From the IMG/VR virus record IMGVR_UViG_3300025120_000020: DNA of 64,000 nucleotides; one strand, written 5' to 3'. The notes beneath the pieces are model-generated. The model did not search any database and was not told where the DNA came from. It saw only the letters and a program-made list of their open reading frames with translations. Both the position numbers and the translations under genes were made by a program. Below are positions 41,023 through 56,882 of the stretch, piece after piece. The number at the start of each line of letters is the position of its first letter. Positions within the stretch are counted from its first letter, which is position 1. This stretch comes from a virus.

Positions 41023-41247
41023 TTCTTTTTATTTATTACACGGGTTTAGCTTTTGTTTTGTTTTATTCTGTGGCGCACCGCCACTTTTAATATGAAAAAT
41101 AACTTCTTTATAGTGTTCACCACCCCCCGCGCTGTATGCGTCAAGCACAAAAGTCAAAAAGTTTCAGAAAACCCCTCCCCTAAAAAAAAATACATTTATA
41201 TGCAGAAAAAGCTTTTTGTTTACCCTGATCTGTGATAAAATACACGC

Positions 41248-41523
41248 ATGGCAACGATATACTTCTCAGGAGGAAAAGCGAAACACGCAAACGAAATCAA
41301 GAGTTTCGTCATCATCTCGAAAACCGCTGAAGGCAAAGAGGTTGTTTGGGGCGAGACCACAAACACTAAAACAGTTGAGAAATTGAGAAGTGGTCAACAC
41401 TGGGCTTTCCCCGAAGGGAAGTTCGTTCGCGTCGAGGAGTTTGAGAACGCAAAGGCTTCTTGGGCTTCCAAGCATGGAGAAAGGCTGGAACTTCTTTATG
41501 GTCGCAACTCCCGACCCCGTTAA
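41248..41523 (+). CDS. Early hypothetical protein (leaderless)
   Basis: TG-A-TAAAAT (41236-41241) 6 nt before ATG. Confidence 0.7.
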   Translation: MATIYFSGGKAKHANEIKSFVIISKTAEGKEVVWGETTNTKTVEKLRSGQHWAFPEGKFVRVEEFENAKASWASKHGERLELLYGRNSRPR

Positions 41524-41587: not shown

Positions 41588-41779
41588 ATGACCGCAACCG
41601 AAGAAGCACTAGCAGCAATGGCAAAAGCAGAAGCAGGATGGGACAAATTAGCAGAGGAGACCGTTGAGGTTTCTGGCCAGTTCCAGAAAGAATGCCAAGA
41701 GTTCCGAAAAGAGCAAAGGGAATGGTTCCTTGAAAATGTGCCTGACCAGCCGAAGCAAGACCCTAGATTCCTAGCCTAA
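41588..41779 (+). CDS. Small helical protein, paralogue of 44046-44198
   Basis: Shares A-M-x-KAE-x-x-WDK and EVSGQFQKECQE with 44046-44198. Confidence 0.75.
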   Translation: MTATEEALAAMAKAEAGWDKLAEETVEVSGQFQKECQEFRKEQREWFLENVPDQPKQDPRFLA

Positions 41780-41806: not shown

Positions 41807-42031
41807 ATGAATCTCCACAATTTCAAATATCAGTCCCCAATGGGGAAAGCAATCTTGATTCTCACCTATCCCATTCTCTTCCCTCATCACATTGGGGAGT
41901 TGATGCGTGAGCGAAAGTTGAAGCGAATTATCCGCAAGGGCATCGCGGATGCATGCAAAGAGCCGCAGGGCGTGACTGCGGAAATCGTCAACGAAGCCTC
42001 GTGCGAACTCCGCATGATTTACGGCAAGTAA
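41807..42031 (+). CDS. Hypothetical protein
   Basis: 74-aa ORF; stop codon 6 nt before the mini-tmRNA. Confidence 0.65.
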   Translation: MNLHNFKYQSPMGKAILILTYPILFPHHIGELMRERKLKRIIRKGIADACKEPQGVTAEIVNEASCELRMIYGK

Positions 42032-42037
42032 AAAGTT

Positions 42038-42103
42038 GGGTGGCCAATGGTTTCGACGGGACGCGAGTCTCGGATGGGGGTTCGATCCCCCCGCCATCCA
42101 CCA
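42038..42103 (+). ncRNA. tmRNA tRNA-like domain only (mini-tmRNA), 66 nt
   Basis: Acceptor GGGTGGC/GCCATCC with G3.U70, discriminator A, encoded CCA; D-loop CAATGGTTTCGA; helix CGGGAC-GCGA-GTCTCG; GAT linker; T arm GGGGG-TTCGATC-CCCCC. Confidence 0.85.
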
Positions 42104-42152
42104 AAAAAAATACTTGACACGTTGAGTTTTTATGTTATAAAAAAAATCGCTC

Positions 42153-42227
42153 TAACTAACTGAGTATCAACGAGTTACGGGGAAGCGCCCCGCCCCCGCC
42201 CGTAACTGACTGAGTATCAACGACTTA
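42153..42227. repeat. Box-spacer-box element 1 (C-rich spacer orientation)
   Basis: TAACTAACTGAGTATCAACGAGTTA + CGGGGAAGCGCCCCGCCCCCGCCCG + TAACTGACTGAGTATCAACGACTTA. Confidence 0.95.
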
Positions 42228-42344
42228 CGAAGGTTTTTTCTATATCAAAACAAGCCATCGTGTCAAGCCCTTTTAAATAAAAAAAAGATTAAATATATGC
42301 AGAAAAAGCTTTTCTTTTGTGAGATTCTCCTGTATACTATGCCC

Positions 42345-42590
42345 ATGTCCGACACTACTACATCACCAACGTTCCGCACCTACAAGACCAAGCATCTGAT
42401 TCTCTCGGTCTACCGCACGGGAATGACTTACTTGCACATCTCTGTAAAAAATAGCCAGTGGAGTCGCTATAAGTTCCAAGCTATCACCCGCGAGCAAGCA
42501 GCTAAAGCCCTCCTTGATATCCGCGCAGCCAAACGCGCAGCCAAGAGAGTAGAGGCCGAAGCCCTTGTTTCTGTCGCTTCTTACCTCTAA
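42345..42590 (+). CDS. Early hypothetical protein (leaderless)
   Basis: TATACT at 42333-42338, 6 nt before ATG 42345. Confidence 0.7.
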   Translation: MSDTTTSPTFRTYKTKHLILSVYRTGMTYLHISVKNSQWSRYKFQAITREQAAKALLDIRAAKRAAKRVEAEALVSVASYL

Positions 42591-43357: not shown

Positions 43358-43417
43358 GAATTAAATTAATCTTTTGTGTTGACATCCGCGAGAAAACAGT
43401 TAATAAAAAAATCCTCC

Positions 43418-43492
43418 TAACTCACTGAGTATCAAGGAGTTGCGGGCGGGGGCGGGGCCGTGGCCCCTAACTCGTTGAGTATCAAGGACTTA
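43418..43492. repeat. Box-spacer-box element 2 (G-rich spacer orientation)
   Basis: TAACTCACTGAGTATCAAGGAGTTG + CGGGCGGGGGCGGGGCCGTGGCCCC + TAACTCGTTGAGTATCAAGGACTTA. Confidence 0.95.
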
Positions 43493-43632
43493 CAACGTTT
43501 TTTTCTTTATAGTAAACAAGGAGAGAGTCAAGCCTAAAAATAAAAATAAATGCTGTCTGACAGATTAAAAAAAGATTAAAATACATGCAGAAAAACCTTT
43601 TAATCTCTGAGTTTTTAGAGTAAAATATGCAC

Positions 43633-43845
43633 ATGACCAACCAAGACAACATCACCCGCCTGATCAAGAAGCAGTTTGTTTACACCACTTCTAACAATGG
43701 AAATCTTCGCATGTATCAACTTCGCGGGGTTGAGCATTCCACCAAGGACTTCGCAGTTTGTAAAGTGGTTGACGTAAGTCACGACAGCAAGACGGGCGAC
43801 GAGGAAATTTTCAGAACTCTCTACTTCTCACGCATAGAAAAATAA
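43633..43845 (+). CDS. Early hypothetical protein (leaderless)
   Basis: TAAAAT 6 nt before ATG 43633; C-terminal FRTLY echoes FRTLH of 42647-42982. Confidence 0.65.
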   Translation: MTNQDNITRLIKKQFVYTTSNNGNLRMYQLRGVEHSTKDFAVCKVVDVSHDSKTGDEEIFRTLYFSRIEK

Positions 43846-43911: not shown

Positions 43912-44025
43912 AGCTCTATAGTTTAAAAAGTAAAACATTCTCCACGGCCTCTCCAATCATAAGCCACCGCAACCCAAATGGTTCGGGCGAGAAAGACAAA
44001 GGTGCAATTCCTTTTAGAGCAACCA
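43912..44025 (+). ncRNA. tRNA-like RNA with 46-nt insert in place of the anticodon loop
   Basis: Acceptor AGCTCTA/TAGAGCA + A + CCA; D stem GTTT/AAAC; anticodon stem TTCTC/GAGAA around 46 nt; T arm AAAGG-TGCAATT-CCTTT. Confidence 0.7.
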
Positions 44026-44401: not shown

Positions 44402-45127
44402 ATGAAAAAACTCCTAATCATCACACTGCTTGCTGTATCAGTTTACTTCTTTCAGGAGGCTGGCAAAGTGGCCAATAAAGAAAAACAAGTAAAGGTTACC
44501 CCGACGACTGTCGAGATTCAGAAGCAAGCCGCGCCTGAGATTGTTAAAACATGGCAAGCACCCGTGCTTGTTAAGCCAAAGCGTTTTTACAAGAGAGACA
44601 AGAAAGAAGATCTAGTTCCTGTTCTTGTTAGACCTAAAAAATCCTACAGGGTCGAAGAGGTTAAAAAAGAAATCAAAAAAGAAATCTCTGCTTGGGATAA
44701 AATGTTTTCTAAAGTAAAACACTACGAGAGTTTTAAGTCTAAAGCGTATCGTTGCAGTGGTGGAGTCATGACTATCGGCTATGGCCATACCAAAAATGTT
44801 AGATGGGGCGACACTATCACAGAATCAGAAGCAGTGAAACTGTTAGAAGAAGAATTACTTGTTGCTAAAAATCATGTGATGAGAATTGTAAAAGTTCCAT
44901 TGACCGAAAATCAATTGGCATCACTCACAAGTTTTACTTTTAACTGTGGTCAAGGTTCACTAAGCAAATTGGTCTGTGAAAAAAAGAATAGACTCAATAA
45001 TGGAAACTATAAAAGCGTTGAGGTGGTCATGCCTCAATATAGAATGGCAGCGGGGAAAATCCGAAAAGGTTTGGAGCTTCGGAGAAAATGGGAAGTTTCT
45101 TTGTGGCGTGATAAAAATTCACTATAA
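44402..45127 (+). CDS. GH24 phage lysozyme with N-terminal signal/anchor
   Basis: MKKLLIITLLAVSVYFF; YESFKSKAYRCSGGVMTIGYGHT (E-x8-C-x5-T); LTENQLASLTSFTFNCG; GLELRRKWE. Confidence 0.85.
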   Translation: MKKLLIITLLAVSVYFFQEAGKVANKEKQVKVTPTTVEIQKQAAPEIVKTWQAPVLVKPKRFYKRDKKEDLVPVLVRPKKSYRVEEVKKEIKKEISAWDKMFSKVKHYESFKSKAYRCSGGVMTIGYGHTKNVRWGDTITESEAVKLLEEELLVAKNHVMRIVKVPLTENQLASLTSFTFNCGQGSLSKLVCEKKNRLNNGNYKSVEVVMPQYRMAAGKIRKGLELRRKWEVSLWRDKNSL

Positions 45128-45141
45128 TAAAAAAAACTCTG

Positions 45142-45216
45142 TAAGTCGTTGAACGTCAAGGAGTTACGAGCGGGGGCGGGGCCAATGGCCCTAACTCGTT
45201 GAGCATCAGTGACTTA
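45142..45216. repeat. Box-spacer-box element 3 (G-rich orientation)
   Basis: TAAGTCGTTGAACGTCAAGGAGTTA + CGAGCGGGGGCGGGGCCAATGGCCC + TAACTCGTTGAGCATCAGTGACTTA. Confidence 0.95.
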
Positions 45217-45235
45217 GAAGGTTTTTTAATTTTAG

Positions 45236-45708: not shown

Positions 45709-45945
45709 ATGACAGTTCAAAATCCTATTGCTGATAGTCTCGCCCCGATGAATGAAACAGACTTACGCGACATGCTCGATGATGGACCTCGCGCTGGCAA
45801 CTTTAACCCCACGCCCGAAGTAGTGGGAGAGTTGCTCGCGCAGATCCAAAACGATATGGGTGATCGTAACCCCGAATGGTCTTCTGATGATGGCCTCTCA
45901 CCCGCAGACGCGCAAGCTCTTCAAAATCACCTCGACGGAGAATAA
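45709..45945 (+). CDS. Acidic early hypothetical protein (leaderless)
   Basis: TTGACG-17-CATACT (45674-45702), ATG 6 nt downstream. Confidence 0.75.
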   Translation: MTVQNPIADSLAPMNETDLRDMLDDGPRAGNFNPTPEVVGELLAQIQNDMGDRNPEWSSDDGLSPADAQALQNHLDGE

Positions 45946-45955
45946 AAAATCGTTT

Positions 45956-46030
45956 TAACTCCTTGAACGTCAAGGAGTTGCGGCAAAGCCCCCCGCCCCG
46001 CCCCGTAAGTCGTTGATAATCAGTGACTTA
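45956..46030. repeat. Box-spacer-box element 4 (C-rich orientation)
   Basis: TAACTCCTTGAACGTCAAGGAGTTG + CGGCAAAGCCCCCCGCCCCGCCCCG + TAAGTCGTTGATAATCAGTGACTTA. Confidence 0.95.
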
Positions 46031-46221
46031 CGGGGTTTTTCTCTTTATCATAAAGCTGGGGGGGATGTCAAGCTTATTTGTTAAAATATTTGGCATTGTT
46101 AGCGCAAAAAAAATCACTTTTAATGCAAAAAAGGTATTGCGCTTCACAAAAAAATGGTTTAGACTCTCACCAGTTCAGAGGCAGTTCTCTGACAGTTAAC
46201 CAACTAGAAACTACTACTACT

Positions 46222-53333: not shown

Positions 53334-53903
53334 TTACCTTTTAACCTGCTCCAAAAACTTATAATCATCTTCGTAAAAAGACTTTATAAAATCAATTTGG
53401 CTTTCAGTTGGGATGGGTTTTTCTGCACCAACGGCCTGTAAGTTTTCTAATTTTATTGGCTTGCCAAATAGTTCAATCAAGAATTCACAAACAGAGGGCA
53501 TTTCATCCATGAAGAAAATTTTATCATGGTAGCTGGGATCGTGACCTATAAAATCAACCTGTGGTCGAAAATGATGATGCATATTCTTGTTAAATCTATA
53601 GTATTTATCGTAAAATTTATCAATAAACTCATCAAGTCCTATAAAATAATTAATGTCATAATGACGGCAAATTCTATTTGTATAGGATGATATAAACCTA
53701 TCTACAGGGTCTCTTACTATGCAAAATTTTATATCTGCGTTCTTCTTCTCTTTGAATGGAAGCGTCCGACTACGATTATGAATCTTGTCTTCGTAATCAA
53801 TAGTGCCTTTAATGCCCTTATGGATCATTACTTTGGTAGAAGTGCATGCACACTTTGGAGTTGGGCAATATTGTATTATTTTATTTTTTGCTTTAAAAAC
53901 CAT
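53334..53903 (-). CDS. Sulfotransferase (Sulfotransfer_2 family)
   Basis: 5'-PSB PKCACTS; 3'-PB VRDPVDRFISSY; HFRPQ; YEDDY. Confidence 0.85.
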   Translation of the reverse strand: MVFKAKNKIIQYCPTPKCACTSTKVMIHKGIKGTIDYEDKIHNRSRTLPFKEKKNADIKFCIVRDPVDRFISSYTNRICRHYDINYFIGLDEFIDKFYDKYYRFNKNMHHHFRPQVDFIGHDPSYHDKIFFMDEMPSVCEFLIELFGKPIKLENLQAVGAEKPIPTESQIDFIKSFYEDDYKFLEQVKR

Positions 53904-53915
53904 TATCTTACATGT

Positions 53916-54572
53916 TTATTCTGGCATAATTGGGTCGGGGGGCCATATAGCTTCTCCTGATTCATCTATAACAATAAATCCTTGATTTACTTTAAGTTCA
54001 TTCCCAGTAATTTCAATTTTTCTTAGTAAATATCCGACTTCTGCATCTTCATAAATAAAATAATTGTCTCTAACTCCATAACCTGCTAAATATGAAGCGG
54101 ATTTTTTAGACAAAAAATATGCTGGCCCCTCACAATACTCCCCTTCTGGCACATCAACCCTAGTATGATTTAGTTCTTCATTTTCGCATTTACCAAAATG
54201 CCAATCATCAGCACCCGCAGTTATCATCCGACCAGAATAATCATATTCTAAAGCTTCACAAACAAGTTTATTAAAATTACCAAAAAAAGAGACATCGTCA
54301 TCTGTTTTTAATATTAGGTCGAACTCTTTGTTTTCAACCACCCATTTAATAGCCATCAAGGTTTTTATAGGTAGACTTTCATAATTGTCTGGGCAAGGCA
54401 AGTAAACTATGTCATCCTTAACTAGAGGAGAAGACAGTTCAGGATCTCCCATAAAATACATATAGTCTCCTAGCATAGTAGTGTCTTGCGACAACATTTT
54501 GTGCCTATATTTCTCACAAGCTAAAATTATTGTGAATAGTCTAGTAGCTTTTTTATACAATTGTTCCCCCAT
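53916..54572 (-). CDS. GT31-like galactosyltransferase
   Basis: DNYESLPIKT, LKTDDDV, YCEGPAYFLS, YEDAEVG. Confidence 0.8.
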   Translation of the reverse strand: MGEQLYKKATRLFTIILACEKYRHKMLSQDTTMLGDYMYFMGDPELSSPLVKDDIVYLPCPDNYESLPIKTLMAIKWVVENKEFDLILKTDDDVSFFGNFNKLVCEALEYDYSGRMITAGADDWHFGKCENEELNHTRVDVPEGEYCEGPAYFLSKKSASYLAGYGVRDNYFIYEDAEVGYLLRKIEITGNELKVNQGFIVIDESGEAIWPPDPIMPE

Positions 54573-54602
54573 ATTATCAAAATAACTAAAATACTTTAAT
54601 TA

Positions 54603-55592
54603 TTAACCCTGTGAACTAGACTCAGCACTTGTCTTCCAAGGTGGCTTAGAGCTTGACTCAGAGCTGCTCGTCTCCGCGCTGGTCTCCGCGCTGGTCTCCG
54701 CGCTGGTCTCCGCACTGGTTTCCGCACTGGTTTCAGGGTTTTTCTTAAACCAACGAGGTCGTAACTTACGAAGTGCAGCGATGAATCGAGCCATAAGTTT
54801 TTTAGCATCGAAGACTATATACGTTGAAAAATCCGCTTCAGTAACTGTATAGTTGGTTGATACACCTGCCCGTGTGTCAGCGGTCACAATCATGGCGTTG
54901 ATATCTGAAATATACTCTGCCACGGGAGTCCCACCTCCTGCCCCGCCCCATGTCCAGACAGTCACAAGTAAAGGTTTACCTTTGAATATTAAAAATGCAG
55001 GATTCCCGCTATCACCTTTGATCTTACTCTCATGAAAAATAAGTCTTTTAGGGTTTGTGGGTGTCTGCATCCTACCTCCAGAGCGCCAATCAATGATGAG
55101 GGCTTTCTCTTCTTGATCAAGACCAAGGCAAGCTATCTTACTGAAGTTATCTAAATACTCGCTGTAATTGCTGGGCATTACAGAGCAAGGCTTTATTGTA
55201 GAGGGGAGGTCACTGTCTAAAGTGTAGATTGTTAAGTCTGGAGTGTAGTTTCTACATTCGGGATGTCGAGCCTTTCCCGTCACGGTGCGGTCATGCACTG
55301 CCCCGTTTTTCTCTACAAACCTAACCACTGTCCCTACAGAATACTCGTAGTGTGCTGCACCTATAATGTGCCTTGGGGTCACTAGTGTCCCCGCTTTCTT
55401 ATGATCACCACTACTATTCCAAGGTGATAAACAGGTAATATCTAAGCCTCCACACCATAGATTGGGATTCCTGACATAAGAGGAGCTTGCATGATCTTGA
55501 GAGGCGAACACTTTACCGTTAGCCTCCATAGTCATAGACTCATCTAAAAGGTCATCAATTTGTTTGGAGCAATGAAGAGTGATAGGTTTCAT
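54603..55592 (-). CDS. Trypsin-like serine protease with ETSA-repeat tail
   Basis: GTLVTPRHIIGAAHY (His), PDLTI (Asp), GDSG (Ser). Confidence 0.75.
   Translation of the reverse strand: MKPITLHCSKQIDDLLDESMTMEANGKVFASQDHASSSYVRNPNLWCGGLDITCLSPWNSSGDHKKAGTLVTPRHIIGAAHYEYSVGTVVRFVEKNGAVHDRTVTGKARHPECRNYTPDLTIYTLDSDLPSTIKPCSVMPSNYSEYLDNFSKIACLGLDQEEKALIIDWRSGGRMQTPTNPKRLIFHESKIKGDSGNPAFLIFKGKPLLVTVWTWGGAGGGTPVAEYISDINAMIVTADTRAGVSTNYTVTEADFSTYIVFDAKKLMARFIAALRKLRPRWFKKNPETSAETSAETSAETSAETSAETSSSESSSKPPWKTSAESSSQG
54670..54734. repeat. 12-bp tandem repeat, 5 copies plus a partial, encoding ETSA
   Basis: GTCTCCGCGCTG x3, GTCTCCGCACTG, GTTTCCGCACTG, GTTTC. Confidence 0.9.
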
Positions 55593-55633
55593 AATTTATT
55601 ATATCTTTGTATTTAAATTTATCTAATTAAAAA

Positions 55634-55709
55634 TGGTGCGCTCGGTGAGATTTGAACTCACGGCCAAGGGTTTATGAGACCCCTGCTCTAACCACTGAGC
55701 TACAAGCGC
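55634..55709 (-). tRNA. tRNA with CAT anticodon, probably Ile2 (lysidine type)
   Basis: GCGCTTGTAGCTCAGTGGTTAGAGCAGGGGTCTCATAAACCCTTGGCCGTGAGTTCAAATCTCACCGAGCGCACCA; resembles ileX-type rather than fMet. Confidence 0.9.
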
Positions 55710-55713
55710 ATTT

Positions 55714-56292
55714 TTATTCTCCGAATTTATAATTAAAAGCCTCAATGTCTCGTGCATATAGCTCTGCAATCACCTGCTTTGCTTCGTCATTGTAATATTC
55801 GGTATAGTGTTTATGTTTGGATTTGTTTTTGTGCGGAAGTTCCTGTCTTGTAATTCTAATTTTATCACAAATAATATTAAAGTCTTCTTGTAAGTTTTCT
55901 ACTTTGCCTATGAAATTACAACCTTTCGTGAAATCATACTGTGATCCATACTTTGAAAAAAATCTGTCTTTTATAATAAATTCACTACTAATACCACCTG
56001 TAAAAAAATCTATAAAATCAAAAGTAGGGCCACCTTTTTTTTTACTTCGCTTATTCCAATATTCTACTATTGAAACCGCTCTATCAAATGGATTTCTTAC
56101 GAATGCGAACTTAAAGAATGTATTAAAAATATTTTCATTTAAAATTTGTTTCCGATGCCATAAAGGAACATGGTTCCAATCGTAGTCCCATTCTTCACAT
56201 AGTCTATCGCATTTAGGCAGCTTATCAAGAATGCTTGTTGATGCTGTTTTAGCGACTCTTGCAAATATAAATTTATGCTCGTAATTAATCAT
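55714..56292 (-). CDS. Sulfotransferase (Sulfotransfer_2 family)
   Basis: RVAKTASTSI; FVRNPFDRAVS; FIGKVENLQEDF; YARDIEAFNYKF. Confidence 0.85.
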   Translation of the reverse strand: MINYEHKFIFARVAKTASTSILDKLPKCDRLCEEWDYDWNHVPLWHRKQILNENIFNTFFKFAFVRNPFDRAVSIVEYWNKRSKKKGGPTFDFIDFFTGGISSEFIIKDRFFSKYGSQYDFTKGCNFIGKVENLQEDFNIICDKIRITRQELPHKNKSKHKHYTEYYNDEAKQVIAELYARDIEAFNYKFGE

Positions 56293-56294
56293 AG

Positions 56295-56882
56295 TTAATG
56301 TCCGAATTCATAATCGAAAGCCTCAATATCGTCAAAATACCTATCTGTAACTAGATTTTTATTTTCATCAGTATACCACTCAGTATAATGTTCATGATTT
56401 GTCTTATTTTCATGTGGTAATTTCTTGGACTCAAAGCCTAGCTTTTGGCAAATTAAATTAAAATCTTCTTGCAAGTTCTCAAACCTGCCTATAAAATCTA
56501 TATTCTTATTAAGAAAACAAAATTGCGGTTTACAGTGAATACGAGATTTATTAGATTCTAAAAAAGATTTAAAGGTAAACTTATAACCAAGCCTCTTGTA
56601 ATAAAAATAAGAAGACATAATCCTATCCCAAGGGTTCCTGACGAAAGTAAATGAAAAGTATTCTTCTTGCTTTTCTAAGGGGAAATCATTTAATGACATG
56701 TGTTGCTTGTGCCGAAAGCCAATACTAAATTCAGATTTAACTTTCATTGGCAGCGCCGACAGAGGATATTTACTCGTCCAATCATGACTTACTCCATAAT
56801 TAGATAAAATAAATCTCTCTATTGAAGTTCCTCCACATTTAGGTATATGCACGAATATAAATTTATCTCTATCACTAATCAT
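56295..56882 (-). CDS. Sulfotransferase (Sulfotransfer_2 family)
   Basis: FIFVHIPKCGGTSIE; FVRNPWDRIMSSY; FIGRFENLQEDF. Confidence 0.9.
   Translation of the reverse strand: MISDRDKFIFVHIPKCGGTSIERFILSNYGVSHDWTSKYPLSALPMKVKSEFSIGFRHKQHMSLNDFPLEKQEEYFSFTFVRNPWDRIMSSYFYYKRLGYKFTFKSFLESNKSRIHCKPQFCFLNKNIDFIGRFENLQEDFNLICQKLGFESKKLPHENKTNHEHYTEWYTDENKNLVTDRYFDDIEAFDYEFGH

Follow-up and report, generated by a model that had tools for sequence, protein, structure and literature searches.

The window, that is, the whole 64-kb stretch of DNA analysed here, comes from a large uncultured marine phage and contains genes for large terminase, ribonucleotide reductase, endolysin, PhoH and glycosyltransferases as well as three tRNAs. 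None of the ORFs scanned in it was recognized as an integrase gene. Terminase and PhoH had remote matches only (25–38% identity) in the phage collection, and no cultured relative could be identified there with the DNA, the putative capsid or the portal-region proteins. Just to the right of a divergent junction, from which PhoH and the structural genes extend leftwards and small ORFs rightwards, lies a 66-nt RNA gene which we interpret as a tmRNA consisting of the tRNA-like domain (TLD) only and lacking the tag (mini-tmRNA; Table 1). On the basis of the analyses described below, we put the probability that it is a genuine TLD-only tmRNA gene of this phage, maintained by selection, at about 90%.

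The three small ORFs directly upstream of the RNA gene had no matches to Pfam families. Because the stop codon of the last of them ends only 6 nt before G1 of the RNA, the mini-tmRNA is probably co-transcribed with these ORFs and then cut out of the transcript. The next promoter, which is strong and of the sigma-70 type, starts 11 nt after the CCA end and heads the first of four promoter-palindrome cassettes; it was not listed by the consensus scanner because the scanner demands T at the last position of the -10 box. The small plus-strand ORFs that follow the divergent junction, together with the sigma-70-like promoter cassettes, make early expression of the mini-tmRNA plausible.

Table 1. Features of the mini-tmRNA gene and its surroundings (positions in the window), and the TLD-only tmRNA of phage DS6A (position in the accession given)
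Feature	Position	Strand	Basis
Promoter-like site upstream of the small ORFs	41087-41114		Promoter scan
Three small ORFs directly upstream	41248-41523, 41588-41779, 41807-42031	+	ORF list
Whole TLD-only mini-tmRNA gene, 66 nt	42038-42103	+	RF00023, own model R1, MFE fold
Acceptor stem, 5' strand GGGUGGC, with G3 of G3.U70	42038-42044	+	Pairs with 42093-42099
D-loop CAAUGGUUUC, 10 nt, no D stem, GG..UUC motif, then GAC	42045-42054	+	Rfam alignment
Helix 2a, 5' strand GACGGGAC, first two positions in G.A/A.G tandem	42055-42062	+	Rfam structure line
GCGA (GNRA) tetraloop where mRNA-like domain and pseudoknots would be	42063-42066	+	RF00023 alignment
Helix 2a, 3' strand GUCUCGGA	42067-42074	+	Rfam alignment, MFE fold, 37-sequence parse
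T arm, 5-bp stem GGGGG/CCCCC, 7-nt loop UUCGAUC	42076-42092	+	Rfam alignment, MFE fold
Acceptor stem, 3' strand GCCAUCC (U70), discriminator A73, encoded CCA	42093-42103	+	Sequence, Rfam
Next promoter, TTGACA-16 nt-TATAAA, upstream TG	42114-42141	+	Read from sequence
DS6A TLD-only tmRNA	JN698994 28478-28560		tmRNA Website tmID 11587

The bacterial tmRNA model of Rfam (RF00023) matched the RNA from end to end (model positions 1-374, 48.1 bits, E 6e-16 in the 64-kb window), which exceeds the gathering score of 47 by a narrow margin, and our own covariance model of the 66-nt family (R1) gave 98.7 bits. All highly conserved TLD consensus positions of RF00023 are present, including the positions UGG-UUC in the D-loop. 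In the same alignment, the 312 model positions of the mRNA-like domain and the pseudoknots are reduced to 4 nt; neither in the sequence nor in the alignment could a tag reading frame, a resume codon, a stop codon or any of PK1-PK4 be recognized. Thus, the earlier note on this DNA, which had described a complete TLD without pseudoknots and tag reading frame, is borne out by the Rfam search that it had proposed. The single elements that it had listed are also present in the sequence, namely the acceptor stem GGGUGGC/GCCAUCC with its G3.U70 wobble, discriminator A and encoded CCA, the unpaired D-loop, and the 6-bp helix CGGGAC/GUCUCG with the GCGA closure and the perfect T arm. One detail has to be revised: the letters GAT that follow this helix had been read as a linker, but G and A pair with G18 and A19 as the tandem G.A/A.G pairs of helix 2a that are typical of tmRNA, which leaves U38 as the single linker nucleotide. 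It should be noted that the MFE fold of the 66-nt RNA is exactly the TLD structure, but that its predicted stability is ordinary for such a G+C-rich composition (z = -1.0); the case for a mini-tmRNA therefore rests on homology and covariation instead.

Several other assignments were considered. An ordinary tRNA-Ala (RF00005) was ruled out, as the RNA has neither a D stem nor an anticodon loop, and when overlapping matches of the Rfam clan at 42038-42103 were reduced to the best one, tmRNA was retained over tRNA. The mitochondrial tmRNA model (RF02544), also suggested earlier as a check, did not match the identical copy in the nearest record (G001) at E <= 10. By this result, the RNA is of the bacterial type and was reduced independently of the organellar forms. 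ARAGORN, likewise suggested earlier as a check, reported no tmRNA, tag peptide or tRNA at 42038-42103 when run on the window. In addition, a scan of bacterial genomes with a T-arm/acceptor 3' pattern returned 19 scattered matches (tRNA-Ala of Planctomycetota, tRNA-like RNAs of Streptomyces and chance matches in coding sequence) and no plausible tmRNA of a marine host.

IMG/VR was scanned with an exact and a degenerate pattern for mini-tmRNAs. These scans identified 27 loci or contigs with 65- or 66-nt versions, which fall into 7 sequence variants with the same predicted fold. Apart from one G.G mismatch in helix 2a, all changes among the variants are structure-neutral or compensatory: G5-C68 is exchanged for A5-U68, C25 is replaced by U to yield a U.G pair, the tetraloop is either GCGA or GCAA (both GNRA), and further differences are located in the D-loop and the T-loop. 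The mismatch occurs in 13 of the 27 loci, where U33 is changed to G and the G.U wobble found in the window becomes G.G; variants of this kind fall below the RF00023 threshold, although the family model R1 gives them 88-98 bits. The most distant carriers are L030, L060, L074, L101 and L106; in these, the neighbouring PhoH protein is only ~63% identical, and the RNA stands out as a single match of 88% identity, with directly adjoining DNA that could not be aligned. A BLAST search of isolated phages with the 66-nt RNA returned short T-arm matches only.

We also examined the presence and absence of the gene with PhoH as the anchor. Among 80 related loci, 30 extend for 4 kb or more beyond PhoH on the correct side, and the mini-tmRNA was present in 10 of these 30. 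When 14 of the loci without it were scanned with Rfam, no tmRNA of any form was detected within 5 kb. Thus, the mini-tmRNA is an accessory cassette, not a core gene, in a shuffled, mosaic early region, and it has stayed intact across wide divergence.

Such patchy occurrence among relatives is what might be expected of a non-functional remnant, either of a recent internal deletion in a full-length phage tmRNA or of an integration-site fragment, that simply hitch-hikes in these genomes. We consider this explanation very improbable. Rfam scans revealed no full-length tmRNA at or near the locus in any relative, and the short form, with its compensatory changes, is maintained in phages whose PhoH proteins are as divergent as those mentioned above; conservation of the short form in the distant carriers and the lack of full-length relatives disfavor a recent one-off deletion. 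The earlier note had itself named a recent deletion from a full tmRNA, with no conserved short form, as the pattern that would speak against its reading, and what the relatives contain is 27 short-form loci. The integration-site version was rejected, since both halves of the TLD are present, unlike in an attP fragment, and the scanned ORFs do not include an integrase.

Beyond the 65/66-nt family, the degenerate pattern revealed ~30 further distinct TLD-only RNAs of 66-85 nt on unrelated phage contigs, often of high G+C content. The comparison set used below consists of 37 distinct phage TLD-only RNAs, 36 of them from IMG/VR and one from Mycobacterium phage DS6A; CCA is encoded in 14 of the distinct mini-tmRNAs. 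G1-C72, G2-C71, G3.U70 and A73 were invariant (37/37), although it should be considered that the filter had pre-required a 5' GG and at least 6 of 7 acceptor pairs; the search pattern itself did not specify any of these four features. Acceptor pairs 4-7 and T-stem pairs 1-2 were 100% canonical with 3-5 pair types each, compared with a canonical fraction of 0.41-0.49 in shuffled controls, and the two T-stem pairs, which the search pattern left unconstrained, were canonical throughout with 4-5 pair types each. Similarly, the 3'-side partners of the tandem, also unconstrained by the pattern, formed G-A in 37/37 and A-G in 35/37 sequences.

The D-loops of these RNAs differ in length, because of which a MAFFT alignment of the 37 sequences misaligned the 5' acceptor strand; an anchor-based parse and a model-based alignment were used instead. 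On the Infernal alignment made with R1, which includes one tRNA contaminant (L030:3971-4046), the covariation score was 0.526, whereas shuffled alignments gave 0.131 and none of 500 reached the observed value; with the pairing partners slid, the score was at most 0.106. The covariation among homologs in phage metagenomes, for which the earlier note had proposed a check, is present. By sequence and by structure, therefore, the RNA belongs to the tRNA-like domain of tmRNA, and it is conserved and shows covariation.

G3.U70 and A73 constitute the identity set of alanyl-tRNA synthetase (AlaRS). The AlaRS element G3.U70, to which the earlier note had drawn attention, is present in the window RNA and in every other phage mini-tmRNA of the set. 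From the invariance of the AlaRS set, here taken to include G1-C72 and G2-C71, in 37/37 sequences, it can be argued that charging with alanine is selected, beyond SmpB binding alone.

These data also bear on another explanation, in which the tRNA-like fold is a mere processing or stability signal, that is, an RNase P site or a 3' stabilizer that punctuates a polycistronic early transcript. The position of the RNA between the upstream stop codon and the following promoter, with no predicted terminator between them, would suit such a signal. However, any tRNA-like fold would suffice for this purpose, whereas the D-loop motif of tmRNA, the G.A tandem, G3.U70 and A73 are kept in very different phages; moreover, the upstream gene is not conserved beside the RNA in the distant relatives. 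We therefore regard a pure processing signal as improbable.

The earlier note knew of tmRNAs without an mRNA-like domain in some protist mitochondria and in engineered constructs, but nowhere else. This does not hold, as Mycobacterium phage DS6A is already listed with a 'TLD only' tmRNA (PMC4131195, 2014; PMC11915505). In a search of full-text literature, we found no paper that presents TLD-only tmRNAs as widespread in phages, and DS6A was the one phage named with such an RNA. RF00023 spans the DS6A RNA from end to end with 43.2 bits, R1 gives it 23.7 bits, and in the set of 37 sequences it groups with the ~80-nt forms. Both RNAs are encoded by a phage in one piece and share G3.U70, A73, the stemless D-loop of tmRNA, the base of helix 2a and the T arm, and neither has a tag reading frame or pseudoknots. 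The DS6A RNA, from an actinobacteriophage, is 83 nt long, has a longer arm (helix 2a, an A-rich internal loop and a second small hairpin) and does not encode CCA, whereas the window RNA, from marine phages, has 66 nt, a GNRA loop that caps helix 2a directly and an encoded CCA. Thus, the kind has been published before, and the window RNA adds an unusually small member to it. What is distinctive here is the smallest natural phage form, with the GNRA loop directly on helix 2a, its marine distribution and its behaviour as a cassette.

Comparison with other tmRNAs places the RNA further. The whole TLD is common to it and bacterial tmRNA (SsrA, RF00023) in sequence and structure, but the mRNA-like domain and the four pseudoknots are gone, and the 'm' half of trans-translation is impossible for it. 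Natural reductions to approximately the size of the TLD are also found among jakobid mitochondrial tmRNAs (RF02544) and the plastid tmRNAs of ~65 bp without a coding sequence that were added for Mallomonadaceae in 2025 (PMC11915505). These organellar forms stand in for the tmRNA of the cell itself; a phage mini-tmRNA, by contrast, would act beside the full-length tmRNA of its host. Engineered TLD constructs, which have served for SmpB co-crystals, ribosome structures and peptidyl transfer in vitro (cited in PMC11090510, PMC8363625 and PMC3895274), have the same design, with acceptor and T arm, D-loop and a helix 2a closed by a small loop; they bind SmpB and EF-Tu, enter the A site and accept peptide. 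However, they are laboratory truncations of bacterial tmRNAs, whereas the window RNA is a natural phage gene under selection. Finally, full-length tmRNAs of phages (Bxz1-like mycobacteriophages and Bacillus phage G) and the two-piece tmRNAs of marine myophages such as Melnitz (PMC9004378), the latter also located downstream of early promoters, are tmRNA-derived genes carried by phages that have kept the tag reading frame. These are detected by ARAGORN, whereas the tag-less mini-tmRNA of the window is missed by it.

With regard to function, we somewhat favor competition with, or inhibition of, host trans-translation, a proposal that draws on analogy with related molecules. Points against the overall reading are the accessory status of the gene, the G.G mismatch of 13 loci and the ordinary predicted stability of the fold. 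The mini-tmRNA would be transcribed together with the small early-type genes upstream of it, its 5' end would be released by RNase P and its 3' end trimmed to the encoded CCA. Host AlaRS could then charge it with alanine via G3.U70 and A73, host SmpB could bind the elbow formed by the D-loop and helix 2a, and EF-Tu.GTP would carry the complex. No phage-encoded SmpB was found in the records G001, G002 and G003, which are fragments (6-35% complete). In this state, the mini-tmRNA and host tmRNA would be rivals for SmpB and for ribosomes that have stalled on broken mRNAs. The nascent chain might pass to the mini-tmRNA, in which resume codon, tag and stop codon are all missing, and the net effect would be to block or divert both ssrA tagging and trans-translation-coupled mRNA decay during infection.

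Several steps of this scheme have counterparts in published work. The TLD elbow is given as the SmpB-binding region on the basis of TLD-SmpB crystal structures cited in PMC11090510, and PMC8363625 cites crystal structures of truncated or TLD-only tmRNA with SmpB and EF-Tu in the A site of a stalled ribosome. According to the citation in PMC3895274, a TLD-only tmRNA accepted peptide in vitro (Shimizu and Ueda, 2006). Furthermore, a similar TLD-only molecule strongly inhibited tmRNA in Escherichia coli (Mao, 2009, as cited in PMC4131195 and PMC11915505); the account in PMC4131195 offers titration of SmpB as a possible cause and describes the inhibition as occurring 'whether or not chargeable'. 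However, the invariance of the AlaRS elements in the phage RNAs suggests that charging matters, and thus action on the ribosome may be favored over a simple SmpB sponge. This also gives room to productive tag-less rescue; competition with trans-translation has support in the literature, and tag-less rescue is possible.

In such a rescue, charging, SmpB and EF-Tu binding, A-site entry and chain transfer would be the same as in competition, but useful recycling would be the outcome: the peptidyl-mini-tmRNA would drop off or be hydrolysed by Pth or a factor of the ArfB type, and ribosomes would be freed during phage-induced mRNA decay while proteins remain unmarked for degradation. The invariant AlaRS elements and A73, which would be superfluous for a pure SmpB sponge (PMC4131195), fit this idea, as does the persistence of organellar tmRNAs without a coding sequence alongside SmpB, which are thought to help with incomplete mRNAs (PMC11915505). 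On the other hand, the sole experimental report on a similar molecule, as recounted in PMC4131195, is one of tmRNA inhibition. Next to the mini-tmRNA, no gene for a release factor or an ArfB-like protein was detected. Against productive rescue it also counts that we know of no release step for a peptidyl-TLD in bacteria, and overall we consider it unlikely.

A role outside translation would be that of an anti-defence decoy, which soaks up or misleads a protein that recognizes the acceptor ends of tmRNA or tRNA or has an SmpB-like domain (for example, of the CoCoNuT type). Defence systems with SmpB-like OB-fold domains that are predicted to bind tmRNA do exist (PMC11090510), the RNA gene is accessory and lies, as a cassette, in a mosaic early region, the usual site of counter-defence genes, and a second unusual tRNA-like RNA is encoded 1.8 kb downstream. 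However, the mini-tmRNA lacks an anticodon loop with which anticodon nucleases could be misled, and thus a decoy for these enzymes in particular is unlikely. A decoy would also have no obvious need for the strictly kept acceptor and T-arm geometry for AlaRS and EF-Tu. As we further know of no defence system that is triggered or blocked by a TLD, we judge the decoy explanation to be distinctly unlikely.

Bacteria rescue ribosomes mainly by trans-translation, which is also a drug target, and to our knowledge almost no natural inhibitors or competitors of this pathway are known. Here, one pattern scan of IMG/VR recovered 36 distinct TLD-only RNAs from widely differing phages, and ARAGORN, a standard annotation tool, misses such RNAs. 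The 66-nt marine form approximates a minimal TLD construct of the crystallographers that was made by nature; judging from its sequence, it may offer a minimal ligand for AlaRS, SmpB and EF-Tu that evolution has already tested, and it provides a simple route to asking how phages profit from interfering with ribosome rescue. A tentative and more doubtful extension of the competition proposal is that tag-less mini-tmRNAs are a general, so far unrecognized tool of phages. As such, they would be charged, SmpB-dependent RNAs, carried as small mobile cassettes, that enter stalled ribosomes early in infection, switch off or re-route host ribosome quality control and thereby shield phage proteins and processed mRNAs from ssrA tagging and RNase R, with the 66-nt marine form as the minimal working unit. 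If this were true, the 66-nt form would define the smallest RNA that engages AlaRS, SmpB, EF-Tu and the ribosome.

Some other elements in the window and beyond it were also observed. A promoter-palindrome cassette of 108-136 nt occurs in four copies that are 63-78% identical (42134-42269, 43399-43534, 45125-45232 and 45937-46072), the first of them directly downstream of the mini-tmRNA. Each consists of a sigma-70-like promoter followed by two imperfect palindromes (...AACTSACTGAGTATCAAGGAGTT...) around a G+C-rich box. In related contigs, such cassettes are found in both orientations, and they split the early region into gene cassettes; presumably they are similar to the mobile promoter-stem-loop cassettes of T4-type phages. 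In addition, a 76-nt repeat (ATATGCAGAAAAAGCTTTT...) is present three times (41181-41256, 42278-42353 and 43566-43641) and ends, in 3/3 copies, in a -10 box (TAAAAT or TATACT) located exactly 6 nt ahead of an ATG. Its placement suggests leaderless early mRNAs and, for the ORF listed at 42297-42590, a true start at the ATG at 42345.

The tRNA-like RNA downstream of the mini-tmRNA (43912-44025, plus strand) matched the Rfam tRNA model with 40.9 bits and has an insert of ~45 nt in place of the anticodon loop, an A1.A72 mismatch, a discriminator A, an encoded CCA and a promoter of its own (TTGCGC-17-TATACT). The insert is too short for a group I intron. A 111-nt version of the element was found in L040, L097 and L006 (42.1 bits) and in G001 (42 bits); its presence in the first three indicates that it is conserved in relatives. 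It may represent a second non-decoding tRNA mimic of the early region.

The acceptor-pattern scan of bacterial genomes also revealed a tRNA-like sequence of ~72 nt in two Streptomyces genomes (regions of L115:3976-4000 and L123:1386-1410). It has the same acceptor stem as the window RNA (GGGUGGC/GCCAUCC), with G3.U70 and ACCA, and no standard D arm, and may be another alanine-type tRNA mimic. The degenerate pattern further caught an element of ~70 nt (...ACATCGAACTTAAGATTCGACGG...GGGTTCGAATCCCAGTAGCGGTACCA) that recurs in L009, L023, L025, L043, L046, L048, L065, L085, L094 and L100, which come from IMG/VR 3300045988 and others. It was rejected as a TLD, as it has at most 4 of 7 acceptor pairs despite its T arm and CCA end. 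Finally, on the minus strand at 53334-56882, three genes of the Sulfotransfer_2 family and one of a galactosyltransferase family flank a tRNA-Met (55634-55709), and glycan modification seems to be a major investment of this phage.
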